A stretch of 64,000 nucleotides of DNA from Terriglobia bacterium (GCA_963664115.2 CAXWPJ010000009.1:1088001-1152000); one strand, 5' to 3'; counted from the first letter of the stretch, positions 28,043 through 58,057 are shown. Translations and numbers: made by a program. Notes: a model not told the origin generated them from the letters alone.

Positions 28043-28156
28043 CAGATCAACGTCGTCCTGAATTTCTTTGAAGGACCGAAGGAACGGGTTCCCGTCCCGT
28101 AAAACCTTGAAATCCGTTCTCGAGTCCTGATAAATCATCTTCTCGGACCTTGAGAA
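28043..28156 (+). repeat. Kinase 3' stub plus palindrome
   Basis: QINVVLNFFEGPKERVPVP* (28043-28102); palindrome 28117-28156. Confidence 0.85.
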
Positions 28157-28209
28157 TTGGACACGCTATCACCTGCTTGCGGCGGTCATAAGGTGGTACA
28201 AGCAAGGCC

Positions 28210-29319
28210 ATGAAAACCATCATTAGATTTTTCGCGGTGCTTTTGTTGGCGGTAATGCTGTGGGGGCCGGTACCGGTCACGGGCCAGGCCCCGCCGTCCG
28301 CGCTTGTCAACCAGGGGGCAGAGGAAACGGTGGAGGCGGCCCGAGCGGCTTCCCCGCGAACGTCGGAAGAGACGTTTGCGTACTTCGAGGATGAAGTCGA
28401 CGAGGCGCTCGCAAGAGCAATCCAACGTGTCTGGGATCCCACCCGGCCTCGAGGAAGCTCCCCACGTACCCCGTGGGGCGACCCGGACCTGCGGGGATAC
28501 TGGTCGAACATTGCCTATACGCCCTTGGAACGACCCGACGAGCTCGCAGAGAAGCCGCTGTACACGAAAGAAGAAGCGATCGAGGCGTTCCAGGGATACG
28601 TCACCAGGGATGCATCTGTCGATCCGGCAACGGTGCATTATGATTGGACGGAGTTCGGGATGGACATCTGGCAAAGCCCGGTTCGACCGAACCTCCGCAC
28701 GGCGCTGATCGTGGATCCGCCGGACGGGAAGCTTCCCGCTCTGACGCCGCAGGGGAGGAATCGCTTACAGGCACAGGCGAGGGTTGACACACTAGAATCC
28801 CGGAGCCTGTACGAGCGTTGCATTACCGGGAGCCAGGGACCGCCAAGGATTCCTGGCAGACAGCAAACCGGTGAGTCTCAGATCGTCCAGACGCCGGACC
28901 ACGTGGTACTCACCATGCAGTCGAATAGTGATGTGCGCATCATCCCCCTGGATGGACGCCCGCGCCCTCCAGACAGCATTCGAGCTTGGTTGGGCGATGC
29001 ACGCGGCCGCTGGGAGGGTGATACGCTCGTCGTTGAGACGACGAACTTCCATGAGGAGCGCAAGTGGAGAGGAGCTGCGGGCAACCTGCACCTCGAGGAA
29101 CGCTTCACACGAATCGACGAAGCCACACTTCTTTACGAAATCACGGTCACCGATCCGACGACGTGGGAAGCACCATGGACAGTGGAGGTTCCCTGGCCGA
29201 AATTGGAACCGCCGGGGCTGTTTGAGTTCGCGTGCCACGAGCAGAATTATGGCATCATTAACGTCATGCGAGGCGTACAGGCTCGGGCAGCCGAATACGA
29301 AGCGGAGTTGGCGAGGTGA
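28210..29319 (+). CDS. Secreted hypothetical protein, DUF6152 partner family A
   Basis: PRTPWGDPDLRGYW, LIVDPPDGKLP, GRWEGDTLVVETTNF, EFACHE.N. Confidence 0.85.
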   Translation: MKTIIRFFAVLLLAVMLWGPVPVTGQAPPSALVNQGAEETVEAARAASPRTSEETFAYFEDEVDEALARAIQRVWDPTRPRGSSPRTPWGDPDLRGYWSNIAYTPLERPDELAEKPLYTKEEAIEAFQGYVTRDASVDPATVHYDWTEFGMDIWQSPVRPNLRTALIVDPPDGKLPALTPQGRNRLQAQARVDTLESRSLYERCITGSQGPPRIPGRQQTGESQIVQTPDHVVLTMQSNSDVRIIPLDGRPRPPDSIRAWLGDARGRWEGDTLVVETTNFHEERKWRGAAGNLHLEERFTRIDEATLLYEITVTDPTTWEAPWTVEVPWPKLEPPGLFEFACHEQNYGIINVMRGVQARAAEYEAELAR

Positions 29320-29393
29320 TCCACAAGGAAACCTACAAATCTTTGAATGGCCCAGAGCCGAAGAGTCGGACTTTATGGGCAACGGGAGCCACC

Positions 29394-29822
29394 ATGCGGA
29401 ATGCAATCACGATAGTTTGCACGGTTGTCGCGGGTGCTGCGTTACTGTTCTCAGCGCCGGTTGCGGCACATCATTCGTTTGCAGCAGCGTACGACGAGAG
29501 TAAGCCGGTAAACCTGCAGGGAGTAGTCACTCAGGTGGAATTGGTCAACCCGCACTCCTGGATCTGGATGGATGTGACCCACGAAGACGGTACCGTGACC
29601 AACTGGGGGCTGGAAGGGGGTCCACCGATTAACCTCTTCAGGAACGGTGTGACGAAGAATACCTTGCCGGTAGGGTCCGAGATCACGGTCTTTGCGTATC
29701 AGGCCAAGAGTGGAGAAAGCAAAGGCGTCGCGGTGTTCTTCGAGTATCTGGATGGACGAAAGGTGTTCATGGGCGGTTCTGCCCCGGGCGCTGATGGTAA
29801 TCCAAGCCCTCGTACTCGGTAG
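29394..29822 (+). CDS. DUF6152 family secreted protein
   Basis: AHHSFAAAYD, LQGVVT, VNPHSW, W.LEGG. Confidence 0.88.
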   Translation: MRNAITIVCTVVAGAALLFSAPVAAHHSFAAAYDESKPVNLQGVVTQVELVNPHSWIWMDVTHEDGTVTNWGLEGGPPINLFRNGVTKNTLPVGSEITVFAYQAKSGESKGVAVFFEYLDGRKVFMGGSAPGADGNPSPRTR

Positions 29823-29944
29823 AGTTCAAGCCGGAAAAGGTCAACCCGTTTTGGGTCGGTGAGGGCAGTGTCAACTTGGGCCTTAACTGACAGGCTCGCC
29901 CCATGAAATCCACCAAATCTCGCTATAACGGTTGCTGAATTCCA

Positions 29945-30114
29945 TTCTCAACTCCTGACAAATGATCTTCTCGGACCTTGAGAACCCCTGTTTTTGCACC
30001 TTTGTCAACGTCCGACAAGGTTTAACAGGCGTTGAGAATTTGATAGCACCTAACTTCCTGCCTTAGAATCTTTTACCGACTTTTTCACGGTTCTTTCAGC
30101 GACAAACCAAAACG
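29945..30114 (+). repeat. Inverted palindrome doublet plus promoter block
   Basis: Palindromes 29945-29984 and 30002-30038; TTGATA-N18-TAGAAT. Confidence 0.85.
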
Positions 30115-30414
30115 ATGGAATCTGTCACACAACTTGGTCCCCTCGGTAAAGGGAGTATGGGAGAGGTCTACCGTGCCACCGACACCAGCCTAAATCGACA
30201 AGTCGCCATCAAGGTGCTCCCCACCGAATTCGCCCAGGACAGTGAACGTCTGGCCCGTTTCGAGCGCGAGGCGAAATCCCTGGCGACATTGCACCACCCG
30301 AACATCGCCCAGATATTCGGATTTGAGAAGTCCACGGGTGTCCATGCCCTCGTGATGGAGTTGGTGGAGGGACCGACGCTTGCCGACCGTATCACCCAGG
30401 GTGCCATCCCGGTT
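30115..30414 (+). pseudogene. Ser/Thr protein kinase, N-lobe only
   Basis: LGKGSMGEVY, VAIKVL, RFEREA, HPNIA, LVMELVEG; no HRD/DFG, downstream reading is unrelated. Confidence 0.9.
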
Positions 30415-30662
30415 CTAAACATCGCGCTCGGCATGCGCAAGCGTGAGGTGGCCCAACGACCAGCCTTTTGGTCGTCTGCATCGGGTTCGAACGAGCACCT
30501 TGAATTGTCGCGAGGACTAATGCGAAGGGATGATAGGATGCACTATGATCCCGATGGAGAGTATTTTCGAGCCGCTCACTGCCGACCAGCCAAGCAGCAG
30601 AATGATGACTGGGTTGGTAGTGCGCGGTTGTTATGTAACGTAAGATCACCACGGAGGAATGA

Positions 30663-31910
30663 GTGATGAAATTAATGCTCAAGAGTTCGAGGCTCCTCGC
30701 ACTCGGTGCCCTCGTTGGAGTCGTCTCGATTGCAGGGTGTGCCACGCAGGAGACCTCAGGAGAGGACGCCAGTACCGCGACCACCACGCAACAGGGCTTG
30801 GTCCATGACGGGCAGGAGCTATTCGGCCATTACTCCCAGCCCCAGCCGTTCCCGCAGGGTTTGCCCGACGACGACCATTCACACGACGGATGGACCTGGG
30901 GGTCCATGGCTGCGGTCTTCGCGGAGAGCTCGGACAGGATTTGGATCGCCATGAGGGGTGAGCTGCCCCTTTCGCCTGGCAACGAACCGTGGACTCCATA
31001 CGCTCTGATGGAGCCCTCTGTGGGGAATGCCTCGCCCAACGACGACAACGGGACGCGTGGATATGAGAGACGCTACCTGCATACCATGATCGCCGTGAAT
31101 TCCCAGGGAGAGCTGGTTGAGCACTGGCCACAACATGACCAGCTCTTCGACGTACGTGGAGGGCGCGGACCCCACAAGATCAAGATGAGTCCGTACGATC
31201 CCGCGAAGAACATCTGGGTCATCGACGACCTCCTACACCAGATCCACAAGTTCTCCTATGACGGCGAGCTGTTGCTCACGCACGGAGAGCAACTCGTACC
31301 CGGACGGGGGCCGAACAACTTCGCCCGCCCGACGGACATCGCGTGGCTGCCAGACGGAACCTACTTCATCAGTGATGGCTACGACGGAACCCGCGTCGCG
31401 AAGTTCGACGCCAACGACAACTTCATCATGGATTGGGGCCAAGCGCCCGTCGACCCCGCGAATCCGGGCCCCTACGAATTCGATACCGTCCATGCCATCA
31501 CAATCAGCCAAGAGAGGCTGCTCTACGTTTCGGACCGGGCGCACGCTCGAATCCAAGTATTCGACGAGAACGGGGAATTCCAGTTCATGTTCCCGACCGG
31601 CCCGCGGGGGCATTCCCTCCCCTACGCGATCGAGGTCCTGAGCGATCCCTCAGGAGAGGAATTCCTTTGGGTTGCGGATGGTGGGATTGGTCGAATGCTG
31701 AAATTCGATCTGCAGGGGAATTTCCTATACGCTTGGGGTATCCCGGGCGGAGAGGATGGCTACTTCAATGGGCCGCACTCAATCACGACCGACGAGAACG
31801 GCAACCTGTATATTGCCGAGGTATTCAACGGCCGGGTCCAGAAGTTCGAGCCCCTGCCGGGAGCCGACCCTGCGAAGATCTTGGGACAGCAACGGCGTGA
31901 GTTTAACTGA
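30663..31910 (+). CDS. NHL-repeat lipoprotein, peptidyl-alpha-hydroxyglycine lyase (PAL)-like
   Basis: Lipobox IAGC; F.RPTDIA, SDGY..RV.KF, VH.I, DR...RIQVFD, RVQKF. Confidence 0.85.
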   Translation: MMKLMLKSSRLLALGALVGVVSIAGCATQETSGEDASTATTTQQGLVHDGQELFGHYSQPQPFPQGLPDDDHSHDGWTWGSMAAVFAESSDRIWIAMRGELPLSPGNEPWTPYALMEPSVGNASPNDDNGTRGYERRYLHTMIAVNSQGELVEHWPQHDQLFDVRGGRGPHKIKMSPYDPAKNIWVIDDLLHQIHKFSYDGELLLTHGEQLVPGRGPNNFARPTDIAWLPDGTYFISDGYDGTRVAKFDANDNFIMDWGQAPVDPANPGPYEFDTVHAITISQERLLYVSDRAHARIQVFDENGEFQFMFPTGPRGHSLPYAIEVLSDPSGEEFLWVADGGIGRMLKFDLQGNFLYAWGIPGGEDGYFNGPHSITTDENGNLYIAEVFNGRVQKFEPLPGADPAKILGQQRREFN

Positions 31911-33514: not shown

Positions 33515-33946
33515 TTAGTCTGTTTGGCCACGCTCTGCCAGCAATTTCTCATACCCCTCATCGTCGAGGTGAGTGACTGCGATCCAGGCATGGGACATTT
33601 CGTCGCCCGTGCGGCTACCGTCAAAAACCCACTGATCCGGGTCAGGATTGTTCGGGTTCTTGGCAGTATTGTCATACCACTGCTTGATCACCAGTACTGC
33701 ACCAGCGGGCAACAATGGAGACACAGCAGGATCGTAGATGTGGCTGTGGTGCCAAGTGGCGCTCCAGTTGGAAACCTGGCTGATCTGCTCAGTAAGGCCG
33801 GTCGACGGATAGAACACTTCCAGAGACGCCGCGTTCATACGCAGGTGACCGTGAGGCTGAAAGCTATCGATACGAACTGGATGGTCGAAAGAGTGGAGTC
33901 CTTGGGTCATGACATGGCCATGGGGAGGGATGACCAACTCACCATT
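33515..33946 (-). pseudogene. C-terminal remnant of a copper type II monooxygenase (PHM)-like protein
   Basis: FQPHGHLR, W...W...Y, YDNT.KNPNNPDP, GDEM motifs; fused in frame behind an IS110 fragment. Confidence 0.7.
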
Positions 33947-34472
33947 ATTGATCCGTGCGGTTCGGGTTCGCATCCACGTCGAACGGATTCGATGCAATGA
34001 GGTCAGTTGCTGTTGGGCCAGCGTCTTGATCGGGACCGGATGAATATCGCTGTCACGATAGGCTTCCAACAACCCCTTCACATCCGTACGGTCGGTCTTG
34101 TTGCGCCTGACGTAGGGCGTCACATACTGCGGCGAGATCAGAACGACCGTGTGTCCCAGTTCCCGTATTTGCCGACCCCAGTAATGGGCGGATCCGCAGG
34201 CTTCCATCACCACGGTCGCCAGCTCCTGGTTCGCAAAGAACCCCAGAAACTTTGCCCGACTTAAACGATAGGTTTTCTCTACATGACCGGGGCGATCTGA
34301 AACACCAATTTGGAAAACATTCTTTGCCAGATCCACTGCAATCGTCTTATCCTTCATCTCGGACTCCTTTTTGTTCACACGTACGCGTGTTTCGCCCGCT
34401 TTATTGCGAGGCCCAAAATGACTGTGGCACTTCGATGCCGATTCAGTCATCAAAGAGGAGTCCATACCATCA
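33947..34472 (-). mobile_element. Truncated IS110/IS1111-family element (left end and 137 aa of transposase)
   Basis: IAVDLAKNVFQ, VMEACGSAHYWGR, NKTDRTD; subterminal ATGGACTCCTC 7 nt from the end. Confidence 0.88.
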
Positions 34473-34774
34473 ATAAATCATCTTGTCGGACATTAGAGAA
34501 CCCTCGTATTTAGGCCTTTTCTCACTGTCCGACAATGTCGGTTCTCAGGACTTGAGAATTTGATAGCGCCCAACTGACTCCTCTAGTATCTTTTACCGAG
34601 TTTTTTACGGTTCTTTCGGCTACACACTTTAAACATAGAATCCGGCACGACGCTCGCCCACTAGGAGATCCTGTCGGTTCTCGGCAAAGGACGATGGGAG
34701 AAATGTGGCGTACGCAGATTAAGATGTTCGAGCGTGAGGTCGCGATCAAGACCCTACCTCGAGAGGTCGCCCGG
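34473..34774 (+). repeat. Half palindrome, inverted palindrome, promoter and decayed kinase 5' stub
   Basis: 34473-34500, 34519-34558; TTGATA-N18-TAGTAT; IESGTTLAH*EILSVLGKG/MGEMWR..REVAIKTLP from 34635. Confidence 0.85.
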
Positions 34775-35086: not shown

Positions 35087-36912
35087 ATGGGAAAGAAGCG
35101 AAAAGAGTCTATCGGCCGACGCAGTTTCCTGAAAGGTGCAGCGGGAGGCGGAGCGGCGCTTGTTGCGACTGCCCCCTAGCTGGCGCGCAGTCTGGGCCCG
35201 GCCCCACGTCGGCGGAGCCGCGTGAAGGGGACGCGACGGCAGGCGGCCGGCCGGGGTCCGACTTCATGATGGACGTCATAAAACCCCTCGGGTTTGAGTA
35301 CATGTCGATCAATCCCCATTCCAGCTCCCGTGGTCTACAGGAATCCATCATCAACTACAGTGGAAACCGCGATCCGGAACTGATCACCTGCCTCCACGAA
35401 GAGGCGGCCGTCGCCATGGCGCATGGATATTTCAAAATTGAAGGCAAACCGATGGCTGCGCTGATATACGGATCAGTCGGTTTGCAGCATGCCTCAATGG
35501 CGGTCTACAGCGCGTTTTGCGACCGCGTGCCGATTTACCTGATGATGGGCAACGAATTGGAGAATCCCAATTCAAGAAGCGTGCAGGATCCTGCGGCGAT
35601 GGTGCGCGACTTTACCAAATGGGACGATGCACCTGTCTCGCTCGATCAATTTGCCAATTCTGCGGTGCGCGCCTATGCCATCGCAATGACCCCGCCGACA
35701 ATGCCTGTTGTATTGTCGGTAGACGAGCGTTTGCAGGAAAATCGGATTCCCAGAGGCACCCGTTTGCGCGTCCCGAAGCTCACTCTGAATGCTCCGGCCC
35801 AGGGCGATGCCACCGCTGTGGCCGAGGTTGCGCGCCTGCTGGTCAACGCTGAGTTTCCGGTCTTGGCCGTCGAGCGCGCTGCGCGAACCGAAGCCGGTCT
35901 CAGCTATATCGTCGAATTGGCGGAACTCCTGCAGGCCGGGGTCGTGGACACGATCCAGCGCATGAATTTCCCCTCGCGCCATCCCCTCAGCCAGGACAGC
36001 GGTGTGTTTGGCAGTGCGGACGTCGTCCTGGCGCTTGAGCACCCGCGACTTTCGCGGTCGAGCCTGATGCAGGATGCAACGCTGCTCAGCATCAGCTCAC
36101 ATGACCTTTTCACGCGGAGCAACTACTGGGATTTCGGAAGCTACCAGGAAGCGGATGTGGCGATCGCAGCCGATGCGGAGGCCACGCTTCCACTCCTGAT
36201 CGAAGAGGTCAAGCGCCGGGTTACCGGCGATCGACAACGCGTGTTCGAAGCGCGTCGCGCGACGCTGGAGGATCGGTTCCAGCGTGCCCTCGAGCGAAAC
36301 CGGCGGCTCGCGGCCTCGGGCTGGAACGGCAGTCCGATCAGCACCGCCCGTGTCGCGGCCGAACTCTGGGCCCAGATCAAGAACAAGGACTGGTCCCTGG
36401 TTTCCCGAAGTGATGGAATGAACGAGTGGGCATGGAAGCTCTGGGATTTCCAGAAGTATCATCACCACATCGGTCAGTCCGGCTCGGTCGGCGTAGGCTA
36501 CAGCAACCCGGCTTCGGTGGGCGCCGCACTGGCAAACCGTAAGCACGGACGTCTGAGCATCAACCTGCAAAACGACGGCGACCTTATGTTTCTCCCCGGG
36601 ACCTTATGGACCGCTGCGCATCACAAGATTCCGATGTTGACCGTCATGCACAACAACCGGGCGTACAACCGGGAAGTGATGTGGGTCGCGCGCACGGCCG
36701 CCGAGCGGGAGCGCGACGTCACCCGATCCGACATCGGCAACTCCATTGACAATCCCAACATTGACTATGCCAAACTCGCCGAAAGCATGGGATGGTACGC
36801 CGAGGGTCCGATAGAAAATCCCGCGGACCTGGGACCGGCCATTCGCCGGGCCCTTGCGGTTGTCGAGCGGGGCGAGCCTGCGTTGCTGGACACGATCACG
36901 CAACCCATCTAG
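35087..36912 (+). CDS. ThDP-dependent enzyme with Tat signal, frameshifted after the signal peptide
   Basis: GRRSFLKG at start; 1 nt missing at C-run 35172-35176; CLHEEAAVAMAHGY, NDGD...HNN ThDP motif. Confidence 0.85.
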
Positions 36913-36921
36913 GAGGTTCCT

Positions 36922-37344
36922 GTGAGTCGTTTACTTATGGATCGCTGGTCGGTCAAACCGCCTTCCTGGGCCCTGGGCGTGGCGGTGCTGCTGCTTGTCG
37001 TCCCGGTGGGGTGGGTCGAGGCCGAGCAGTCGCCGGCCGCGGTTGACGCCGCGCCCGGAGGAAACGTCGAAGACGGAAAGCGGAGCCTGACGACCTATAC
37101 CTGCTCCTCCTGCCACGGTTATTCAGGCCACGGCGGGGTCGACGTAGGCGCTCCCCGCATCGCCACGACTTCAATGTCCCTTGCCGACTTTACGCAATAC
37201 GTGCGGCAGGCCAGCGGTTCTTCAATGCCTCGGTTTAGGGCCGAAATCTTACCCGACACGGTGCTGGCGGATATTTACGCTTTTCTGAAATCCATCCCAC
37301 CGCCACCCGATTCCAGGAGCATTCCTCTGCTGAATGATCTGTAA
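36922..37344 (+). CDS. Monoheme cytochrome c
   Basis: Signal peptide; CSSCHG; distal MP; AGGAGG RBS. Confidence 0.9.
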   Translation: MSRLLMDRWSVKPPSWALGVAVLLLVVPVGWVEAEQSPAAVDAAPGGNVEDGKRSLTTYTCSSCHGYSGHGGVDVGAPRIATTSMSLADFTQYVRQASGSSMPRFRAEILPDTVLADIYAFLKSIPPPPDSRSIPLLNDL

Positions 37345-37363: not shown

Positions 37364-37441
37364 GGGTCAAGTCCTCGCAAATCATCTTCTCGGACATTGA
37401 AACCCCATTTTCAGGGCCTTTTCTCAGTGTCCGACAATGTC
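37364..37441 (+). repeat. Palindrome doublet, second copy cut by IS30
   Basis: 37364-37402 full; 37421-37441 half. Confidence 0.85.
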
Positions 37442-37448
37442 ATTCGGA

Positions 37449-37925
37449 TCAACCGGTCGATGCAACACAAGCATTAAATGTTTCTGCCGGAGTTGCGAAC
37501 TCCAAGGTCTTGCGTGGCCGCTCGTTGAGCTGCCGTGCAACCGCGTCCAGATGCTCCTGTGAGTGTACTGAGAGATTCGTCCTTTTTGGGAAGTAGTATC
37601 GCAGCAGACCATTCGTGTTTTCATTCGATCCGCCTTGCCATGGACTCCGCGGGTCGCAAAAGTACACGGTAATGTCGGTGGCCAGAGTGAACCGTTTGTG
37701 CTCGGCCATCTCCGGACCGCGGTCCCGGGTCAGCGACCTGTAGAGTTCGGTTGGCAGCTTCTTCGCCTGTCGGATCAGTGCCGAAACGACTGTCTCTGTA
37801 ACGGACAGCTTCACCAACATGAGGTAAGACAAATGACGTTCGACCAGCGTTGCGATGTGGGTGTTCCTCGCCGATAGCAGATCCCCTTCCCAGTGTCCCG
37901 GTAGGGCCCGGCGATCGCGACCTAC
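37449..37925 (-). mobile_element. IS30-family transposase, C-terminal remnant
   Basis: PGHWEGDL, TLVER, DRG.EMA, PWQ.GSNENTNGLLR, LNERPRKTL, CVASTG*. Confidence 0.9.
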
Positions 37926-37942
37926 TTGGTCCCGAGATCGAA

Positions 37943-39469
37943 TCAGATGTATTGAGGCCGCGGCTGCTTGACCGGCGGGACCTGAAGCTCGGGCATCGGC
38001 TTTGCGGCAAAGATCCAACGGCACGGTTTCGCAATCAACTTCGCCCATCGGCGCCCGCGGCTGCGAGCGCTGTCGGTGGCGAGCCCCGTATTCGCGTACA
38101 TCTGGGGGAACAGTAAGGAGATCAGAATGTAGGCCAGTCGATCGCGCAGCTTGTTCGTGACCCGCGAGCGCTTCCACACGTTCGACAGGTTATAGAACTC
38201 TTTCCAAACCGCCTGCGTTTTCGTCCGGATCTCATACGGCGTCATCGTTGGATGCGGAATGTAGAGCTTGGGACGTTTGTTCGGTGGGATAAGCCAGAAC
38301 CGGTTCAGCGGGATCCCGTCCACCGTCTCTTTGGCCTGATCGATCTCGCTCTCCCACTTATTGAAATCGACTGTACCGGGAAACGGCGTCAGGGTAACGA
38401 ACTGAGCGAAATCGATCCCTGCCTTGGCAGCGAGATCGGCGGTCGCGTCGAACGTGTCGTCGCGATCCGTCGAAAGCCCAAAAATGAACGAGCCGAGGAT
38501 GTGGACGTCGTGGTCGACAAACTTGCGGAGCCGCTTGACGAGATCGTCTCCCGCGACGTTGAAATCCTTGAATACGGCCTTCAGACCTTCTTCCGTCACC
38601 GACTCGACGCCGACGAGAGCGCCTTTCACGTTCGCGCGTTTCATCGCATCGAGATACTCGTCATCGTCCGCGGCTTCCATCGTGATCTGCGTCAAAAAGA
38701 CCATGTCCTGCGGAAGCTCAGCGAGGCGATCCAAGAGCTCAAAACGCTCCGCACGGATAGCTTTTAACTCTTCCACGCGAGCGCCGGAACGACGCTCCTC
38801 GAGCTCGATGTCTTGCTGCGTGACCGGGTAAAAGTTGTCGTCGGCGAGAAGTATGAAACGAAATCCTTTCCGTCGCAGCTCGACGACCTCCTGGACAACG
38901 GCGTCCGAGGCGTGCTGTCGAGGCCTTTGGCCGTCGGTGCGCCAGACCGAGCAGAAGGAGCAATGTTTCGGGCAACCGCGCACGGTCTGCACCGAGGCGA
39001 TCATGTAGCTCTCTGACGGCATCAAATCCCACCGCGCAGGAAGGAAGGAGTCCCCTTCGATGCGGCCGCCGTCGTAGATCCGTTCCGGCTCGCCCTTTTC
39101 AATATCTTTGAGAACCTGACTCCAGATGTTGTCGCCGTCGCCCTTCACGACCGCGGTCGCGCCGCCATTCTCGAACGCTTCTTCCGGATAGAGCGTCACA
39201 TGCGAACCGCCGAAGACGACATGCGCACCACGCTCGCGCGCCTTTTGCCCGACCTCGTAGCCTCGCAGCGCGTTCAACGTGTGGATACCGATGCCCACGA
39301 CGTCGCCCGGCTGGATCTTGGAATAGTCCATCGGATCGAGCGTCTCATCTACGATAATCGGCGTTCCGAAACGAGCCGGTGTCGCGCACGCGATCACGTA
39401 GAGCCAGCGAGGAACGATGATACCGATACCGAAGGAGGTGTCGCTTGGGTTTATCAAATGTACGCTCAT
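37943..39469 (-). CDS. B12-binding domain radical SAM protein
   Basis: VVFGGSH.T, RGCPKHCSFC, DDNF, GVES, TPFPGT; start at MSVHLINP behind GGAG. Confidence 0.9.
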   Translation of the reverse strand: MSVHLINPSDTSFGIGIIVPRWLYVIACATPARFGTPIIVDETLDPMDYSKIQPGDVVGIGIHTLNALRGYEVGQKARERGAHVVFGGSHVTLYPEEAFENGGATAVVKGDGDNIWSQVLKDIEKGEPERIYDGGRIEGDSFLPARWDLMPSESYMIASVQTVRGCPKHCSFCSVWRTDGQRPRQHASDAVVQEVVELRRKGFRFILLADDNFYPVTQQDIELEERRSGARVEELKAIRAERFELLDRLAELPQDMVFLTQITMEAADDDEYLDAMKRANVKGALVGVESVTEEGLKAVFKDFNVAGDDLVKRLRKFVDHDVHILGSFIFGLSTDRDDTFDATADLAAKAGIDFAQFVTLTPFPGTVDFNKWESEIDQAKETVDGIPLNRFWLIPPNKRPKLYIPHPTMTPYEIRTKTQAVWKEFYNLSNVWKRSRVTNKLRDRLAYILISLLFPQMYANTGLATDSARSRGRRWAKLIAKPCRWIFAAKPMPELQVPPVKQPRPQYI

Positions 39470-39776: not shown

Positions 39777-39966
39777 TTCTCAAGTCCTGACAAATCATCT
39801 TCGCGGACATTGAAAATCGGCCTAAATACGAGCGTTGACCTTCTGATTGCTTACAACTCCCTCCCTTAGTATTCTTTACGGAGTTTCTCGCAGTTATTTC
39901 AGCGACACACTCTAAACATGGAATCCGGCACCAAACTGGGTCACTACGAAGTCCTCAGCCTCCTTA
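39777..39966 (+). repeat. Palindrome, promoter and kinase 5' stub
   Basis: Palindrome 39777-39816; MESGTKLGHYEVLSLL from 39918. Confidence 0.85.
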
Positions 39967-40103
39967 GGTTTGACCCTGCGGTTAGGAGTTGCGAACTGGC
40001 CTCCGGAGATAATCGTGCGCTGGAAAGGCTCAGCCGGAGGCAGATGGATCTATACTCACGAGCCGGAAGGGAGAAAACTAAATCCGGCTGAAAGGAAAGC
40101 ACC

Positions 40104-41063
40104 ATGACATTGCGCATGCCCATGCTGAGTACGGTCCTGCTGGCGCTGCTGCTGGGAATCGCCGTCAGCGGCGAGTGGTCTGCGATGAAGGCGCAGAGCG
40201 CCTTCTCGCTCACACCGGTCGGCCCCGACCTCTACTTCTACTACACGGGTGGAGCTTCCAACTCCACCGTGCTGATCACCGAGGAAGGGGTACTGATCGT
40301 CGACTCCCAGGGAAATCGGCGCGCCGCCGAAGCGCTGCTGGCGGAGATCCGCAAGAAAACGGCCGACCCTATCAAATGGGTCGTCAACGGGCAAGACCAC
40401 GGCGACCACTATCTCGGCAACGCTGTTTTTAAGCGCGAAGGCGCGGCCATCGTGGCGGAGGCCGAGACGGCTCGCATCATCGCGAGGAATTACGAGTACG
40501 AACTCGAGTGGCGCGGTCTGGATCCGCTCGAGGCCGGAGAACATGTGATCCCCGAGGTCACGTTCGAGGAACGAATGGTCATCCGCTTGGGCGGGCGCGA
40601 GGTCATCCTCCTTCACATCGGTGCGGGGCAGAATCCCGGCGATACGGTCGTGTTGTTTCCCCACGCGCGCGCCGCCTACTCCTCGGGTGCGTTCGCGCCG
40701 AAGTCGTGGTCCAGCACCGCCTACGCCTCGTCCGTGGAGAGCTGGATTGACGTGCTGGAGAAGATCAAAGCGCTAGACGTGGACACCTACCTGCCGGGTC
40801 ACGCCCACAGGGTCACCGACCGGGCCGAGATCGACGAGGAGATTGTGTTGCTGCGCGAGATCCAGGCCGCCGTGGAAGACGCCATTGCGCAGGGTCTGAC
40901 CGCAGAAGAGACCGCCCAGGCGCTGACTTTCGAGCGGTACGCAAACTGGAGGGGTGCCGCGCGGCGCGAACGGAACCTCCGGAACCTCCATTACCTGCTC
41001 TCGACCGGCCGGCCGATCTACTTCGACTACCTGGACGGCCGCACGACCATCAAGCCGTATTAG
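40104..41063 (+). CDS. Secreted MBL-fold hydrolase (cyclase-like)
   Basis: SNS.VL...EGVLIVDS, NGQDHGDHYLGN, PGH; first His and GHT His replaced by Gln. Confidence 0.85.
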   Translation: MTLRMPMLSTVLLALLLGIAVSGEWSAMKAQSAFSLTPVGPDLYFYYTGGASNSTVLITEEGVLIVDSQGNRRAAEALLAEIRKKTADPIKWVVNGQDHGDHYLGNAVFKREGAAIVAEAETARIIARNYEYELEWRGLDPLEAGEHVIPEVTFEERMVIRLGGREVILLHIGAGQNPGDTVVLFPHARAAYSSGAFAPKSWSSTAYASSVESWIDVLEKIKALDVDTYLPGHAHRVTDRAEIDEEIVLLREIQAAVEDAIAQGLTAEETAQALTFERYANWRGAARRERNLRNLHYLLSTGRPIYFDYLDGRTTIKPY

Positions 41064-41145
41064 AGTTTGATCTTGCGTGCGGATAAGCGGTGTAAGCAGG
41101 GGCTGACGACTATGGCAGCGCTGACAGTGTCGTAGTACGATCGGC

Positions 41146-41233
41146 CAGAACTGGTTTGAAGAACTGAAGCTACGGGTGCCGGTTCCTTGATTCTCGGGGT
41201 CAAGTCCTGATAAATCTTCTCGGACGTTGAGAA
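41146..41233 (+). repeat. Kinase 3' stub plus palindrome
   Basis: QNWFEELKLRVPVP* ending 41190; palindrome 41197-41233. Confidence 0.88.
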
Positions 41234-41241
41234 ACCTTTCT

Positions 41242-41688: not shown

Positions 41689-41842
41689 TCTTGTGCTGAG
41701 CAGTTTGCCACAGATTTGTCGTGGAGGCCGGAAACGTGAACGAGCTTCTGCGATTGATCTCAGCGTCTCTAAATCCTGCTCGCGACGGACGCTTTCTCGC
41801 GCTGGAATCTACCGAGACAGAGACGACGGCGAAAGGCTCCAC

Positions 41843-42000
41843 TTTATCGCTGTGCTAACCTGGTTTGAAGAACTCAAGGAGCGGGTGCCGGTTCCCTGAT
41901 TTTCCGGGTCAAGTCCTGAGAAATCATCTTGTCGGACGTTGAGAATCGGCAAATTACTGAGGTTTTTCAACGTCCGTATGTCGTTTCTCAGAACTTGAGA
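41843..42000 (+). repeat. Kinase 3' stub plus inverted palindrome doublet
   Basis: FIAVLTWFEELKERVPVP* ending 41899; palindromes 41906-41945 and 41964-42000. Confidence 0.9.
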
Positions 42001-42143
42001 CTTTTCTTGCGCAAAAATTCAGACTTGAGCGAGGCATTCGGGCAGCCTCACTAGCAAAATATTTAAGCAATCAAGAAGACTTTACCGCGGGTGAAATGGC
42101 CCGTGCTCTGTTGGACTTCATACTCAAGGAGACGTAGACGCCA

Positions 42144-42665
42144 ATGTCGAGATTCACAGAACGCATGATTCGCGCTGCGAAGTTAGATGTGAACCTTTAT
42201 GAAGAGGTGGAAGCCGATAAGACGACCATGGGCCAGGCGATGGGCGTGGTGGTGTTGTCTTCTCTTGCCGCCGGCATCGGCAGTATATCCACGGGTGGCA
42301 GAAATTTAATTCTCGTGACCATTGCCGCTTTAGTGGGATGGTATATCTGGGCTTATCTCACTTATTTTATCGGCACCAAATTTCTGCCCGAAACGCAAAC
42401 AAAGGCCGATTACGGAGAACTGTTAAGAACGATCGGATTTTCTAGCTCGCCGGGGCTGATACGGATTTTGGGAATCATTCCAGGGTTCACCAATTTAGTC
42501 TTCTCGGTGGCCGGAATATGGATGCTCATTGCGATGGTCATTGCGGTGCGTCAGGCATTGGACTATACAAGCACCCTGCGAGCGGTGGGTGTGTGCTTGA
42601 TCGGCTGGATCATTCAGAGCATCTTTGTAGGGCTCTTATTGTTGTTTGCGCAGGGTGGCGCTTGA
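42144..42665 (+). CDS. YIP1 family membrane protein
   Basis: YEEVEAD...QA, LLRTIGFS.SPG, AVRQALDY; 5 TM segments. Confidence 0.85.
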   Translation: MSRFTERMIRAAKLDVNLYEEVEADKTTMGQAMGVVVLSSLAAGIGSISTGGRNLILVTIAALVGWYIWAYLTYFIGTKFLPETQTKADYGELLRTIGFSSSPGLIRILGIIPGFTNLVFSVAGIWMLIAMVIAVRQALDYTSTLRAVGVCLIGWIIQSIFVGLLLLFAQGGA

Positions 42666-42812
42666 AAAACCCGCTGATACCTCCGTCTACGCTTCGAGCG
42701 CAACCTCACGATGCCGCCCGCAAGACTCGACGAGGCCAGAATGGATTCGCTACATCCTTTTCTGTACGGCACTTTCATCCCCTACAACATGCCGGTTTAT
42801 CCCGGCGCTTTC

Positions 42813-42843
42813 CCTGATAAATTATCTTCTCGGCGGTTGAGAA
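42813..42843 (+). repeat. Degenerate partial palindrome
   Basis: CCTGATAAATTATCTTCTCGGCGGTTGAGAA. Confidence 0.7.
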
Positions 42844-42905
42844 ATCCACCAGGGGGTTAAGTGGCCCCCCTCAGGAATCTCACCCAAGGAGACGACCTAG
42901 TCGAG

Positions 42906-43067
42906 GTGAAAGCGAAGAAAGAGACGACCCCGGACGTTCGCGTCTGGTGTCAACACTGTCGCGTTCGAATCTCACCCAATGAAGACCAGGTTGCTGCCGG
43001 TAACAAGGTCTACCATAGGCAGTGCTTTCCCAAGCGGCCCTCCGTCAAGAGAGCTAAGAAGAAGTAG
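42906..43067 (+). CDS. Small basic protein with a single LIM-like zinc finger
   Basis: CQHC...YHRQC with a Lys-rich tail; start uncertain. Confidence 0.55.
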   Translation: MKAKKETTPDVRVWCQHCRVRISPNEDQVAAGNKVYHRQCFPKRPSVKRAKKK

Positions 43068-43142
43068 CCGCTATTTCTGAATGAGTGCCCACCGCAAGTG
43101 AGCCACCATCCATCAGGTCACCGAATCTGGAACGAAAAGCGA

Positions 43143-43355
43143 GGTCAAGTCCCGAGAAATCAATCTTCTCGGACGTTGAGAATCGGGCCTAGTTCGTATC
43201 GTTGCTTCCAACCCATTCGTTCTATAGACTTTCTCCCAGTTGTTCCACGTTTCATTAACAGAGAATCTTAGGAATGGAATCCGGCAGCAAACTCGGTTAC
43301 TAGGAGACCCTGTCTGCCCTCGGTAGGGGTGGGATGGGAGAAATGTGGAAGGCCA
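43143..43355 (+). repeat. Palindrome, promoter and kinase 5' stub
   Basis: Palindrome 43143-43182; TTGCTT-N17-TAGACT; MESGSKLGY*ETLSALGRGGMGEMWKA from 43274. Confidence 0.85.
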
Positions 43356-43505
43356 CTGAACTTCGGCAAGTGAGTCATCCTGGAACTGAGAATCGACAGA
43401 GATGAAACGACTCCTTCCACCCTTAAATCCATCGGGATCAACCACCAATGATGCAATAATCTCTCTATGCAGCTGGTCAAGAAATCCAGCAGGGCAAATC
43501 CTGGT

Positions 43506-43567
43506 GACGCAATTACGCTGCAGTCGTGATAAAGCCGACGCAATTACGCTGCAGTCGTGATAAAGCC
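43506..43567 (+). repeat. Perfect 31-bp tandem duplication
   Basis: GACGCAATTACGCTGCAGTCGTGATAAAGCC x2. Confidence 0.95.
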
Positions 43568-43633
43568 GGACCGCTTCACCCTCCGGCGATCCAAGAGGTT
43601 TGTAGTGAAACAATGCTTTCTCGGGAGGAAAAG

Positions 43634-44011
43634 ATGAATCTGAAGTCTCTGAGCCTTGCCGTCGCGACATTTGTCGCTCTAGGCGCGTCGGCGTGGGCGC
43701 ATCATTCACATGCGAATTACAACACCGACGAGTTCACAAACCTGTCCGGCACCGTTACCCAGGTGGCCTGGGGGAACCCGCATGTCTGGCTGTATATGGA
43801 GATCGCCGACGAGCAGGGCCGTCCGCAGGCGTGGACAATGGAGGGCGGCAGCCTCCAGGCGTTGATGCGCGGCGGCTGGCAACGCGACAGCCTGAAGCCA
43901 GGCGACAGGATCAGCGTGCGCTGCAATCGAGTGAGAGATGGGTCCTCAGGGTGCCTGATGGGTTTCGTGACGAACATCAACGGTACGGCCATGGACAAGG
44001 AGTTCGACTGA
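43634..44011 (+). CDS. DUF6152 family secreted protein
   Basis: AHHSHANY, GTVT.VAWGNPHVW, W.MEGG, C...RDG..GC.MGF. Confidence 0.88.
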   Translation: MNLKSLSLAVATFVALGASAWAHHSHANYNTDEFTNLSGTVTQVAWGNPHVWLYMEIADEQGRPQAWTMEGGSLQALMRGGWQRDSLKPGDRISVRCNRVRDGSSGCLMGFVTNINGTAMDKEFD

Positions 44012-44055
44012 GCCTGTCGCTTAGGCATTACACGACAAAATCGGAGGAGGATCAG

Positions 44056-45075
44056 ATGCGTTATCTCGGACTTGTTTCGGCGGCCTTGGTCGTGCTGAGC
44101 ACAAGCGCCTCCTTTGCGCAGGGCTGGCGTGAATATGTCAGCCGTGATGAGTTCTTCATGGTCAGTATGCCGGCGGAGCCGCAAATTACGGAGACCACGT
44201 ACCGTGCGGCGTCAGGCGCGATCCTGCCGGCGAAGACGTTCGTCGCGACCGAAGGCCAGAGTGGTGCTTCCGTCACCGTCGTCCACTACATGAACGCGAG
44301 CGCGGCAGACGTTGAGGGCGCCGTTGAACATGCGGTGGGGGGCTTCCGCAGCCGTTCCGGGGAGATTACCTATGATAGCCCGCAAAGGATGGAGGGCCTT
44401 CCGGGACATATGATCTACCACTTGAATCCGGACCAGAGCCGCACCGCTGCAGGAATATTTTTGCACGCGGGGCCGTCCGAACATGGCGGCCCGGGGCGCC
44501 TATATATCCTCGAGGGCATTGCGGCGGCGGGCGCGCCGTCGCCCATACAGTTCCCGCAATCGTTCTTTTTGCTCGACGACGCAGGCACCCGCCTGGACTA
44601 TGAAACCGATGCGAACGGGCAGAGAGTCCGGGCTTTTCGCGGCCAACCGGTTAGCGTCGGCCCGGCCTACAGCGCGCGAGAGCCGGTGTCCTGTGAGTCG
44701 CGCGCCGAGCCCACCCAAGGCCGGCCGACCCCCGCGCAGGTGGTGGGTCACCTCAAGTGCGCGGCCGAAGGCGTCGCCGACGGCAGTCTGTATCTCCTTG
44801 AAGACGTCGAAGTGAGCGAGATCGGCGAAGGCGAGTCTGTTGACGCGAGTTACTTCCCTGACATCGACGTCGCCCACCCGGTGTTTCCGATTCGGGGGAA
44901 TCTGGTGCGCTACGAGTGCCGACGCGAGAATGGCTCCAATGACGGAGCCAACTGCGTTTCCCATGTTGAGGCGAACGCATCCGGCCGTTGCTACAAGGCC
45001 ACCTCAGGCGACTGGAACTGCAGCATGTCGGACCTTGTGCAACGGACGACAGCGGGCGTAGCGGCGCCGGAGTAG
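44056..45075 (+). CDS. Secreted protein, partner family B with extra Cys-rich C-terminal domain
   Basis: GGAGGAGG RBS; AQGWREYVSR..F.V.MPAEP, RLYILE; six Cys in the C-terminal ~125 aa. Confidence 0.8.
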   Translation: MRYLGLVSAALVVLSTSASFAQGWREYVSRDEFFMVSMPAEPQITETTYRAASGAILPAKTFVATEGQSGASVTVVHYMNASAADVEGAVEHAVGGFRSRSGEITYDSPQRMEGLPGHMIYHLNPDQSRTAAGIFLHAGPSEHGGPGRLYILEGIAAAGAPSPIQFPQSFFLLDDAGTRLDYETDANGQRVRAFRGQPVSVGPAYSAREPVSCESRAEPTQGRPTPAQVVGHLKCAAEGVADGSLYLLEDVEVSEIGEGESVDASYFPDIDVAHPVFPIRGNLVRYECRRENGSNDGANCVSHVEANASGRCYKATSGDWNCSMSDLVQRTTAGVAAPE

Positions 45076-45122: not shown

Positions 45123-45149
45123 ATAAATCATCTTGTCGGAAGATGAGCA
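45123..45149 (+). repeat. Right half of palindrome
   Basis: ATAAATCATCTTGTCGGAAGATGAGCA; same left breakpoint as 34473. Confidence 0.65.
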
Positions 45150-45225
45150 TTGATCCCACCACTTTCCGATGAACGGACAGCACGGCCAAGTGGAATTCGA
45201 AATTGTCGATTTTCGACAGCATGCG

Positions 45226-46392: not shown

Positions 46393-46706
46393 GGTCGCTC
46401 CGGCCCGGCGACGCTCCCTCCGAGCTTGGGAGCGGCGCAGTCCGCAACTCGCCCGCCCCACCCCTGCCGATGGCTGAAACGACTTCGTAGTGTGCGAGCA
46501 ACGTAAGAAGACTCACTGTTTCAATAGCTTGTCCGAATTGAGTGGTAATCGGCCAGCGACTCGGACAGGGACTCCGACAGCGTTGCCGCTATCGGCAATC
46601 ATGGAAACTCTGAAAACCTCAGGCTCTGGAGATTTGGTCGAAACCGAAAGGCCGCGAATCGGCGAATCCTGTTCGATCTCCGCTCCGCGGCCGCCGAGCC
46701 TGCCCG

Positions 46707-55934: not shown

Positions 55935-56061
55935 TTTCAGCATCCTCCCCATCTTGAACGTTTTTCGAACTCTGCAAATCGGTTTTCACCTCTCGCTATA
56001 TTGCGAGACTGCAGTTTTTACGCCTAAGTTACTGATTTTAATTTCTATTCTAGGAACTGAA

Positions 56062-56294
56062 TTCTCAACGTCCGACAATGTTTCTCAGGACTTGAGAATT
56101 TAATAGCGCCTAACCCACTCCTCTAGTATCTTTTACGGAGTTTTTCACGGTTCAATCAGCAACACACTTTAGACATGGAATCCGGCACCCAACTCGGGCA
56201 CTACGAAATCCTCTCAGCCATCGGCAAAGGCGGCATAGAGTGAGGTGTGGGTCTTGATGGCAATTTTCCGGCTGGGCTTGGTGTCCCGCGCACG
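56062..56294 (+). repeat. Inverted palindrome, promoter and kinase 5' stub with internal 45-bp inversion
   Basis: Palindrome 56062-56098; MESGTQLGHYEILSAIGKGG from 56175; 56250-56294 reads RARDTKPSRKIAIKT on minus strand. Confidence 0.88.
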
Positions 56295-56404
56295 GTGTGC
56301 ATCAGAGGAGGGCGAATAATACGCGGAGCCGGCCCGGATAGGCTTACTTCCGAACTGGCGTACGGCTAGCGATCCCGACACCATTCATAGGGCACAGAGA
56401 CGGT

Positions 56405-56848
56405 TTACTCGACGTCTTCGAAAAAACCGCTCGCAGTGAGCTTCACCACGATGTCCCTGTCGCTGCGGTTGTTGAGGTACCAGCCATGTATTCCGTCAAA
56501 CGGCGCCTTCAGCGTGCCGCTTTCGCGGCCTTCGTTGTGCACCTTGTAGAACATCAGGTCGCCCTGGCCGTCAACGGGTTCGGTATGACCGTGGAATTCC
56601 ACGTCCAGCAGAGCCGGGTCCGTCACGTCGGACGTCCAGGAATACATCATGAAATCGCCGGCCTTCATGCTCAGTTTGAACTCCAGGCCTACGCCCGTCG
56701 GGATCAGGATTTCATAATCGCTCTGCTTGTAGGGAGTGGTGGCATCAGAAAAGGTGCCGGGGCTTAGGGGCATGTCGTTCCATTGAACCTGGGCCACGCC
56801 TGTAACTGAAAAGATGCAAATTACGAGGGGAACAATCAGTTTTCTCAT
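56405..56848 (-). CDS. Secreted hypothetical protein with FHGH and HGWY motifs (possible metal binding)
   Basis: Signal peptide; AAGGAG RBS; LEFKL.M, EFHGH, APFDGIHGWYLNN. Confidence 0.75.
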   Translation of the reverse strand: MRKLIVPLVICIFSVTGVAQVQWNDMPLSPGTFSDATTPYKQSDYEILIPTGVGLEFKLSMKAGDFMMYSWTSDVTDPALLDVEFHGHTEPVDGQGDLMFYKVHNEGRESGTLKAPFDGIHGWYLNNRSDRDIVVKLTASGFFEDVE

Positions 56849-57117
56849 ACCGGACTCCTTACATGTTGCCTGTTGACGAGTGCGCCATATTACCAACGAT
56901 GCGTCGTAGCCGGGAAGGAATTTCGTCACGGCAGCGTCGTCAGACCCTGCTCATTCCGCTTATCCGCGCGCGCGTCCGCATTACCCCAGAATCCAGACAT
57001 TGGCGCCGCACTGCAATATCTCTAGCTTGTTCCAATTACGGATGAGATACGCTCAAACGTTTGCCGGCCTTGTGATACATTCGGTGTCAGCCCTTCTCGA
57101 ATTGAGGAATAACGAAA

Positions 57118-57880
57118 ATGTCGATTGAGAGACTTCGGCGATTTTGCCGTCTTAGAACGCTCATGGCGTATTCGATCCTATGGTTGTTGCCGGTCGCCTT
57201 AGCGGCGCAGGATGCTAGCGATCCCTCCACTCTTTCTCCGGGATTTCATCGTCTGACTTTGCCGCGTGCGGATGGGCCCGTAATCAACTACGCGATCCTC
57301 GTTCCGGATAGCTATTCTCCCTCGACGCCCGTCCCTCTCATTCTTGCATTGCACTTCGGAGGAAACCCGACAGGCGCGGGTGCGAGCGTACTGCAAATTC
57401 TGATTGGTCCGGCGCTTAGCGAACTCGGCGCCATTATCGTCGCGCCGGATTCGGTGGGAGGCAATTGGACCACCCCCGACCACCCCCGAAAACGAGGTCG
57501 CTGTGAACGCGTTGCTCGACACGGTCTTGGACCATTATGCAATCGACGAGGAAAAGATTGCAGTTACCGGCTTCAGCATGGGCGGCGCAGGCTCCTGGCA
57601 TTTTGCGCAGAGTTTCCCGGAACGCTTCAGCGCGGCAATTCCTATCGCCGGCAGACCGCCGGCATCAGCCGCCGGGTGGCAGCTTCCGGTATTGGCTATT
57701 CATTCCCACGACGACCAAGTTGCACCTTTTGAGCCAACTGAGGCACGAATCGCGGAACTTCAGAACGCCGGTGCGGACGCGACGCTGATCGCGCTTTCCG
57801 GCATCACGCATTACGAAACCCACCGCTTCCAAGATGCATTGCAGCAGGCGGTCCCGTGGTTACGTGAGATTTGGGAGTAA
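57118..57880 (+). pseudogene. Secreted alpha/beta hydrolase, frameshifted by a 10-bp duplication
   Basis: PLILALH; GACCACCCCC x2 at 57468-57487; GFSMGG, D.V.P and H in the second frame. Confidence 0.85.
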
Positions 57881-57972
57881 AGCCTTTAGCAGGATGGCGG
57901 ATAGGCGTTTTAAGCAGGGCCCGACGACTGTGGCAGCAATGAAAACGTCAGAGTAGGGGCGTTATGTAAACC

Positions 57973-58057
57973 TGGCTGTTTGAAGAACTGAAGGAACGGG
58001 TGCCCGTGCCCTGATTTCCGAGTTCAAGTCCTGATAAATCATCTTCTCGGACGTTGA
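57973..58057 (+). repeat. Kinase 3' stub plus palindrome
   Basis: WLFEELKERVPVP* ending 58014; palindrome 58022-58057. Confidence 0.88.

Follow-up and report, generated by a model that had tools for sequence, protein, structure and literature searches.

What keeps the two ends of a Ser/Thr kinase gene in place, copy after copy, around genes unrelated to it? The question is raised by a 64,000-nucleotide (nt) stretch of a Terriglobia bacterium genome (G000:C9:1088001-1152000), which as a whole is called the window here and belongs to a genome of 4.89 Mb that is 97% complete. A sequence-only reading of the window had described kinase genes hollowed out to their termini, termed stubs below, with cargo genes between them and a palindrome beside each, and had proposed that these junctions act as landing pads or homology arms for gene swapping. 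Our analysis suggested, with a probability of roughly 0.6, that the stubs belong to genome-wide arrays of cassettes exchanged at a 34-bp site, probably by a tyrosine recombinase, most likely the host XerC, and that the stubs themselves are likely to be scars of replacement or erosion.

Kinase stubs and the 34-bp site

The five 5' stubs (starting at 30115, 34635, 39918, 43274, and 56175), several of them with stops or frameshifts, and the four 3' stubs (stops at 28102, 41190, 41899, and 58014) were all present and translated as described. A 34-bp core lay 9 nt downstream of three of the 3' stubs and about 18 nt downstream of the one ending at 28102, while the 5' stubs had the element 55-130 nt upstream and a promoter-like stretch, read by eye, in between. 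Cargo was found between stubs in 39918-41190, a metallo-beta-lactamase-fold (MBL) gene, and in 56175-58014, two open reading frames (ORFs), one on the minus strand and one frameshifted; no intact kinase was present inside the window. Elsewhere in the genome, three intact kinases of 883-902 aa, with a Pkinase domain and a PD40 propeller, began with MESGT, ended with WFEELK.RVP.P, and were followed by the element. Because these intact kinases carry both ends, both stubs come from one gene family, as the sequence-only reading had supposed. The gene at C5:8574-11282 (PF00069, E=9e-50; PF07676, E=3e-25; VAIK, HRD, and DFG present) shows the features of a Hanks-type Ser/Thr kinase with a C-terminal beta-propeller as the parent gene. 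The idea of an ancestral tandem kinase array was borne out by intact ones in G017, G021, and G235. The founding unit consists of an inverted R site, a promoter, the kinase/beta-propeller gene, and an F site, repeated in tandem arrays.

Profile searches of the whole genome, with the reversed genome as a control, gave 284 copies of the element (243 at E<0.01), 157 kinase 3' stubs, and 78 kinase 5' stubs, against 0 of each in the reversed genome. Elements and stubs clustered (gaps <12 kb) into polarised arrays totalling 683 kb, about 14% of the genome; the window itself held 17 elements at E<=0.05, of two classes. The system is real and genome-wide. An assembly chimera, with stubs unspanned by reads, was ruled out by independent copies in G002 and in the metagenome contig L190 and by read contigs from 4 runs of 4 studies (one of which may be the source of the assembly), which spanned the stub-cargo and stub-site-cassette joins with 0-2 differences. 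The join of the 39918 stub to the MBL gene was bridged at 39920-41122 (0 differences) and 39908-41122 (1 difference), and the stub-site-cassette-stub stretch at 41100-41914 in runs X1, X3, and X6 and at 41118-41914 in X4; contig joints with sides of 20-35 nt (mostly <30) inside repeats were left out. No exact match was found among viral contigs, and an Rfam search of three loci returned one tRNA. Contigs of the RNA runs X15 and X16 covered some cargo genes; such contigs carry no strand or promoter information, and no inference was drawn from them.

The core of the site reads TCAAGTCCTGAnAA, a 6-bp centre, and TTsTCGGAmnTTGA (14+6+14). The 256 copies at E<=0.05 were typed by regular expression, which mistypes a few shortened-centre copies, as 206 of class F and 50 of class R. 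Class F has the centre ATCATC, lies on the kinase strand, and stood directly behind a 3' stub in 84 of 206 cases; class R has the centre ACGAC[A/C], is inverted, and stood directly before a 5' stub in 27 of 50. Neighbouring sites were co-oriented in 182 of 201 cases; F>F neighbours numbered 119, R>F neighbours 32, and close F>R pairs 23, the F-R pairs lying about 25 nt apart; both classes, with such pairs, recur in family f6. Among 132 cores of G000, conservation was 0.97-1.00 in the spacer and only 0.50-0.83 at arm positions 12, 23, 24, 29, and 30. Linkage in 233 cores with their flanks formed two chains, with z values of 11 (11x12), 10 (5x12), 7 (23x24), and 6 (30x38) within blocks and z=0 across the centre (12x23). 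The would-be hairpin pairs showed no covariation, and the mean folding energy was only -3.9 kcal/mol (-2.2 in relatives), so the site is not selected as a hairpin. The palindrome is better read as a recombination site. The first three bases of the centre were constant per class across lineages and the last three varied (ATC-atc in G000, G002, and G003; ATC-cgg in G004 and G001; GTC-nnn in f6; ACG-nnn for R).

The host dif is single and intact, lies at the skew switch (C2:108145), and is separate from the arrays. Similarity to its XerC arm averaged 7.0/11 for the F right arm and 5.2/11 for the left arm, where a match of 8/11 occurs at 0.09% of positions. The dif XerC arms of other families end in CCGATAA or CTGATAA, like the site arms, and an ATAA-spacer-TTAT core was frequent in f6 sites. 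The replichore bias of the sites was weak (67 vs 48, with a noisy skew), and a hidden Markov model of a third, "S" site, built from 3 seeds, gave 8 matches only. Three further dif-like sequences accompany the main dif in G002 (C1:478201, C2:3627229, and C2:3801334).

A strict site pattern was found in 6 of 41 genomes and a relaxed one in 15 of 301 (all 4 others of genus g1, 4 of 5 in g4, and 5 of 52 in family f6), while an f6-type pattern occurred in 11 of 301, with 48 copies in G235. A diverged site, again with two centre classes, stood at 51 of 174 stub flanks in G001, G004, G007, and G021, above the 99th percentile of shuffles. The f6 arrays were bounded by sites and mostly without kinase remnants (kinase-like matches in 3 of 12 loci: L237, L238, and L248); their sites keep the 25-nt inverted pairs and are present between intact tandem kinases as well. 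Stubs adjoining intact tandem kinases were also present in G001, G002, G003, G004, G007, G021, and G030, in regions picked for 3'-end matches or sites. Two further arrangements were observed: tandem intact kinases separated by hairpin pairs resembling repetitive extragenic palindromes (REPs), not by the site, in G013 (L138) and G021 (L142), and four tandem kinases in G017 (L153) with stop and next start nearly overlapping and no intergenic site.

Movement of site-bounded cassettes

Comparison of copies showed that site-to-site segments have changed place from array to array and from genome to genome, with breaks inside the site. C2:264295-265630 equals C6:43761-45096 at 99.8%, and C10:212434-217822 equals C12:548709-552698 at 99.7/97.4%, with differing flanks on both sides in each case; further recurring site-to-site segments with changed neighbours were found as 97%, 90.5%, and 83.6% pairs. 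Window positions 28114-29988 recur in G002 (L051) at 95%, and in L190 a cassette known from C2 stands next to the window's 56062 unit (96%), the two being connected by way of F and R. The window's short cassette at 42801-43186 has an 89% copy with different neighbours at C12:548419-548743. The median site-to-site segment was 2.4 kb, with 1-3 genes per cassette. After exclusion of long block duplicates (C6/C11, C2 ends, and C5/C9 overlap), which are possibly assembly or haplotype duplicates, 44 duplicated array segments gave 88 ends, of which 41 lay at insertion sequences (ISs), 28 elsewhere, and 19 in the site in both copies; the site-located ends fell to 12 once 7 IS-derived ones were removed, and sites make up 1.5% of array bases.

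Stub coverage along the kinase gene was U-shaped (61,34,24,17,15,16...54,87). The minimum falls in the kinase core, the best-conserved part of the gene, so the dip on the 5' side is no detection effect. The 5' stubs measured 22-861 nt, besides 7 full-length genes, and 115 of 157 3' stubs were <=150 nt; many F sites without a stub retain just the post-stop linker (by eye). Of the 78 5' stubs, 39 face a 3' stub without an intervening site, and these include 3 full-length genes and about 4 empty ones, the rest holding 1-6 kb of other DNA. Among 145 site-to-site segments, 70 had neither stub and 16 had both, against 13 expected by chance, so that the 5' and 3' ends have been shaped independently. 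Mismatches by codon position (0.12/0.10/0.23 in 109 of the 115 short 3' stubs) fit the decay of fragments from many diverged kinase genes, and most of 205 cargo-side flanks were unique, 8 being IS481-like ends. A MITE-like insert of about 120 bp occupies one fixed position in the 3' stub (C6:31711-31832, C2:764.6k, and C12:577991), with variants in G001, G004, and G017.

These data bear on the original proposal in two ways. Genes do swap at the junctions, as it held; the main swap point is the 34-bp site and not the stubs. The hollowed shell moving as a unit between two homology arms finds no support as the general rule, given the stub-free segments and the chance-level co-occurrence of stubs. 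Since f6 arrays are also mostly kinase-free, the site rather than the stubs is likely the landing pad, and the stubs are likely scars of one-sided replacement or deletion beside it. Exchange would take place at the edges of the spacer and pair sites of the same class (F to F, R to R); two crossovers could then replace a unit that has R at one end and F at the other, as has been proposed for the pdif modules of Acinetobacter. New cassettes would arise one end at a time through illegitimate joins at a variable, mostly short distance from the site, so that the kinase end, linker, or promoter left attached would range from 0 to several hundred nt; a minority of joins would reflect IS-adjacent deletion. 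In this likely history, a tandem-amplified kinase cassette served as the template, and its interior was replaced or deleted from either site inward.

Some rearrangements around the arrays are recorded here as separate observations. C6:19-48k and C11:1-9.5k plus 54.8-63.5k hold the same cassettes in two arrangements, which may reflect an inversion polymorphism or duplication in the assembly, and C11:55478 is a recombinant of two inverted C6 F sites with the crossover between model positions 2 and 28. Left halves resembling attC, the integron cassette site, stand just 5' of some F sites (C6:39771, C11:55478, C2:771623, and C9:992643); of 12 motif matches across the genome, these 4 fall within flanks that total 24 kb, and a single duplicated cassette accounts for three of them. 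These halves suggest that some cargo was taken from integron cassettes.

Candidate enzymes and competing explanations

Inspection of ORFs identified three IS families, one IS30-like and two IS110-like, that sat at the site in 6/6, 6/6, and 5/5 copies; the commonest ISs did so in only 1/69, 5/53, 0/24, and 1/15, and 0.9% of the genome lies within 60 nt of a site. Several IS families thus parasitise the site. An element of G235 combining an IS91-type transposase and a tyrosine recombinase (IS91-integrase) was inserted precisely at the boundary of centre and arm in 9 of its 11 copies, and no duplication accompanied it; the insertions involved five different centres in both orientations and shared only TT. 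Copies in G002 (2/2), G004, and G000 were likewise at the spacer edge of R/F, and each of the 8 complete copies of G000 was located inside a site or no more than about 30 nt away from one. Relatives were present in 12 of 41 genomes, 11 of them of family f1. The boundary of spacer and arm is the cut position of tyrosine recombinases, and insertion of these elements at the spacer edge is possibly an undescribed integration route. Examples are at C1:92.9-95.4k, C12:568-570k, and C3:2.9-5.4k in G000, L277-L286 in G235, and L287-L288 in G002. By eye, the far end of the element seems foldable into a long attC-like hairpin pairing with the first bases of the element.

XerC and XerD were the sole tyrosine recombinases common to G000, G002, G003, G004, and f6 among those compared, namely 25 of 27 in G000 and up to 30 loci per search elsewhere. 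The nested recombinase of contig C5, the integron integrase IntI, and the IS91-linked enzymes were each either not shared or not linked, and Xer was shared; by elimination, XerC is our leading candidate, at somewhat less than even odds, with the IS91-linked enzymes probably next. The 321-aa tyrosine recombinase at C5:52189-53154, flanked by two R sites, was considered as the cognate enzyme and rejected, as it was not found in G002, G003, or G004. Within C5:52056-53273 it has on either side an R site that faces outward and a 5' stub, the two stubs being divergent, and it was treated as cargo. IntI was rejected too, lying about 190 kb from the nearest site with attC-like repeats of its own; the locus (C9:713.7-715.9k, L063) encodes an integrase of the classical integron type, is followed by long attC-like repeats, and bears no relation to the arrays. 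A search for remote tyrosine recombinases gave nothing new except three fragments 21-36 kb from sites. Serine resolvases were surveyed at the level of matches, which occurred in 5/5 genomes, with no link of any of them to the arrays.

Several observations weigh against exchange at the site by XerC, as does the reach of the recombinase comparison just given. Neither arm resembles the host XerD arm (5.1-5.3/11) and the F right arm of G000 is without TTAT, so that the site does not fit canonical XerCD chemistry. Linkage decays within the arms as well, stubs occur in G007, G021, and G030 despite few detected sites, and the IS91-integrase copies of G001 were at ordinary CGTT targets in 5/5 cases examined, so that spacer-edge targeting is not universal. 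In three of the four cassette pairs of >=99% identity, the travelling arm differs at 2-3 positions; a single fixed crossover is thereby contradicted, and one at the spacer would be insufficient without additional gene conversion. The switch falls within the 3' stub in one pair and coincides with the kinase ATG in another. Cargo was co-oriented in only 65% (166 vs 91), and no excised circle was seen. The comparisons yielded no donor locus having a mapped join with microhomology, and the data fit capture by hollowing as well as erosion that fuses neighbours.

Homology arms, with the whole junction (3' stub, site, promoter, and 5' stub; 250-500 bp) as a RecA substrate or as an anchor in homology-facilitated illegitimate recombination and the 34-bp element as a passenger or operator, would explain the two crossovers outside the spacer, one in a cassette pair and one in a kinase pair, as well as the arm alleles scrambled even in >=99% pairs and the stubs in genomes with few sites. 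Consistent with it are the presence of DprA and the conservation of third codon positions at the termini (0.81 and 0.70 vs 0.59 in the core, the 3' end comprising 9 columns and codon type being uncorrected), and a like mechanism has been proposed for type VI secretion system (T6SS) effector arrays of Vibrio (PMC5361080). However, the stub-free segments have no more than about 40 bp in common, linkage is interrupted at the spacer, which is invariant while the arms vary, f6 arrays mostly lack kinase remnants, and elements integrate at the spacer edge. ComEC was not found in the 97%-complete genome, and the same paper gives such recombination as orders of magnitude rarer than homologous recombination. 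Arm-mediated exchange thus accounts for some cases, as first proposed, and is unlikely as the general process.

Shuffling in trans by the IS91-linked tyrosine recombinase, whose companion rolling-circle transposase could make captures of variable length, would fit the exact spacer-edge integration in G235, G002, and G004, the position of all complete copies in G000, and the spread of relatives across f1. We consider it less probable still: with the query used, the enzyme was not found in G003, which has 48 sites, nor was it among the listed G299 recombinases, the G001 copies use other targets, and cassette ends are without the long hairpin carried by the elements' own ends.

Ordinary decay, in which tandem kinases with a REP-like intergenic hairpin expanded and IS-driven deletion then left other genes between remnants, is very improbable and already largely refuted: the genome is IS-rich (379 kb masked), IS481-like ends adjoin a cluster of 8 3' stubs, IS110-/IS30-like elements insert in the centre much as in the loops of REPs, one site has a RAYT-like gene at a distance of 197 nt, and genuine REP-like hairpins stand between kinases in G013 and G021, but the sites lack covariation and fold weakly, neighbours are co-oriented and cassettes move with site boundaries, random loss would not strip the core yet spare the ends, and the RAYT-like gene adjoins 1 of 256 sites. 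This RAYT-like gene is a Y1 transposase ORF at C10:489979-490818, beside a tRNA-like remnant, with a second, broken copy at 492.7k.

The window's features and the nearest known systems

The features of the window are given in the table; Pfam was searched with cargo ORFs of the window only.

Table. Sites, kinase stubs, and cargo of the window (positions counted from its first letter)
Feature	Position	Strand	Basis or remark
Site class F, 34-bp core	26823..26856	+	Profile match
Cargo: solute-binding protein	27128..27976	+	PF13531
Kinase 3' stub, degenerate	28043..28102	+	Translation
Site F	28120..28153	+	Left edge of cassette at 95% in G002; other upstream neighbour there
Cargo: 369-aa ORF without Pfam match and DUF6152 gene	28210..29822	+	Pfam
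Site F	29948..29981	+	
Inverted site, R position, spacer shortened	29998..30041	-	Just 5' of promoter-like stretch
Kinase 5' stub, ~342 nt	30115..30456	+	Pkinase 7-95
Cargo: NHL-repeat protein	30663..31910	+	Pfam
IS110-family remnant, inserted at spacer of F site at 34473	33515..34465	-	
Interrupted F site, right half	34473..34497	+	
Site class R, inverted	34515..34561	-	
Kinase 5' stub, ~140 nt, mutated start codon	34635..34774	+	
Cargo: thiamine pyrophosphate (TPP) enzyme and cytochrome c	35266..37344	+	Pfam
Site F	37367..37400	+	
Half R site	37415..37441	-	Spacer broken by IS30-like remnant (rve, 37449-38177)
Site F	39780..39813	+	
Kinase 5' stub, ~64 nt	39918..39981	+	
Cargo: MBL protein between stubs	40104..41063	+	PF00753
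Kinase 3' stub	41146..41190	+	
Site F, 3-nt spacer deletion	41200..41230	+	
Kinase 3' stub	41843..41899	+	
Site F	41909..41942	+	
Site R, inverted, pair with preceding F site	41960..42004	-	
Cargo: Yip1-domain protein	42144..42665	+	Pfam
Short cassette with an F site at each end (the one at 42801-42847 degenerate, the other at 43139-43186)	42801..43186	+	
Kinase 5' stub, ~102 nt	43274..43375	+	
Cargo: DUF6152 gene and downstream ORF without Pfam match	43526..45075	+	
Partial F site	45123..45153	+	
Kinase 5' stub, a sixth, absent from the sequence-only reading	46445..46516	-	
Site R, inverted	56058..56101	-	In L190, joined via F site to cassette at C2:258420
Kinase 5' stub, ~75 nt	56175..56249	+	
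Cargo: ORF 56405-56929 (-) and frameshifted ORF 57118-57880 (+)	56405..57880		
Kinase 3' stub	57961..58014	+	
Site F	58024..58057	+	
Cargo: DUF3024, single-gene cassette between two F sites	58127..58474	+	
Site F, then PCMT methyltransferase gene 58619-59380	58552..58585	+	

A repeat of about 60 bp recurs at cargo ends adjoining 3' stubs or sites (6 flanks; 41075-41110, 56936-56971, and 57895-57950 in the window), and a perfect 31-nt tandem duplication lies behind the 43274 stub (43506-43567). A 66-nt direct repeat of a tRNA-Leu end (12427-12492 and 13607-13672) resembles that of an integrated island. Across the genome, many of the cargo genes that also occur in the arrays of relatives encode proteins that look secreted, DUF6152-like genes and their partner ORFs among them.

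In neither integrons nor pdif modules is the initial assembly of gene cassettes known to be settled. The approximately 230 stubs per genome record intermediate states, by which cassette genesis could be mapped break point by break point, in a system that organises roughly a seventh of the genome and is present in at least two Terriglobia families; the two spacer classes suggest a natural cassette-exchange design. Current finders likely miss it, because neither attC nor dif features are matched, and a search of open-access article text found no description of it. A tentative and on balance doubtful extension would make it a third cassette platform beside integrons and pdif modules, in which host XerC would work on symmetric sites devoid of an XerD arm, by a single strand exchange requiring 3 bp of homology, cassettes would be born by the hollowing of a kinase, and IS91-integrase elements would dock at the site; if true, the graded stub series would preserve cassette birth.

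A diversity-generating retroelement was rejected, as the 3' ends are conserved and not hypervariable; the genome has 5 reverse transcriptase matches. As in REP/REPIN-RAYT systems, a lineage-specific imperfect palindrome is present in hundreds of copies, in inverted pairs, and as an IS target; unlike REPs, the site is confined to polarised arrays, has an invariant centre, folds weakly without covariation, and bounds mobile cassettes, and the RAYT-like ORF stands beside one site only instead of being a cognate gene flanked by copies. Integrative elements that exploit Xer, such as the CTX phage, are comparable in that just three spacer bases by one arm are fixed per class, and the joining of single-stranded-DNA-type IS91 elements at the spacer edge with only TT shared recalls single-strand-exchange integration; CTX-type elements, however, target a single dif, whereas here dif is separate and the sites form host arrays.

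Like sedentary integrons and clusters of attC sites lacking integron-integrases (CALIN), these are polarised chromosomal cassette arrays, shuffled at a repeated site and targeted by the IS110 family, and their cassettes move as site-bounded units. The site, at 34-40 bp, is nevertheless shorter than attC and without R/L box structure or covariation, IntI and attI are not next to the arrays, cargo orientation is mixed to the extent given above, and cassettes often have a promoter-like stretch of their own. Pairing in an attC-style circular form was no better for own than for shuffled ends (1.32 vs 1.28, p=0.37; 59 of 219 segments parsed). Leftover gene ends in arrays are shared with Rhs and contact-dependent inhibition (CDI) orphan modules and with Vibrio T6SS effector-immunity arrays, where they are explained by anchored illegitimate recombination (PMC5361080); unlike those, both conserved termini of a receptor-like kinase survive here, the cargo is unrelated, and a dedicated site forms the boundary.

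In its working, the system most resembles the Acinetobacter xrs/pdif modules, and the resemblance fails on the XerD arm. According to the literature, cointegrate formation followed by resolution exchanges inverted xrs/pdif sites whose central regions differ, an ATAA-spacer-TTAT core is named as the determinant of Xer binding and cutting (PMC11705084), chromosomal dif-module islands exist (PMC12907356), and specific ISs target pdif/xrs sites (bioRxiv 2022.12.17.520857); for Acidobacteria, ordinary dif only is reported (PMC3025954). Both systems have short accessory modules bounded by arm, 6-bp centre, and arm, often inverted between adjacent sites with different centres, in multi-module arrays that can be chromosomal, without a dedicated recombinase gene and targeted by specific IS families; here, too, two arms enclose a centre within the 6-8 bp of Xer sites (14+6+14 in f1 and f6, with spacer-edge integration). 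Flanking by inverted sites gives a mixed picture, being present in the 32 R>F units and absent from the F>F majority. In contrast to pdif, the conserved arms are 14 bp rather than 11 bp with none of the XerD type, most neighbours (119 F>F) repeat directly and carry one and the same spacer, and IS110-, IS30-, and IS91-like elements enter the spacer, where IS1202-type elements at pdif sites lie 5 bp outside. The arrays described here also comprise about 280 sites over 14% of a chromosome, with cassette ends that derive from one kinase gene.

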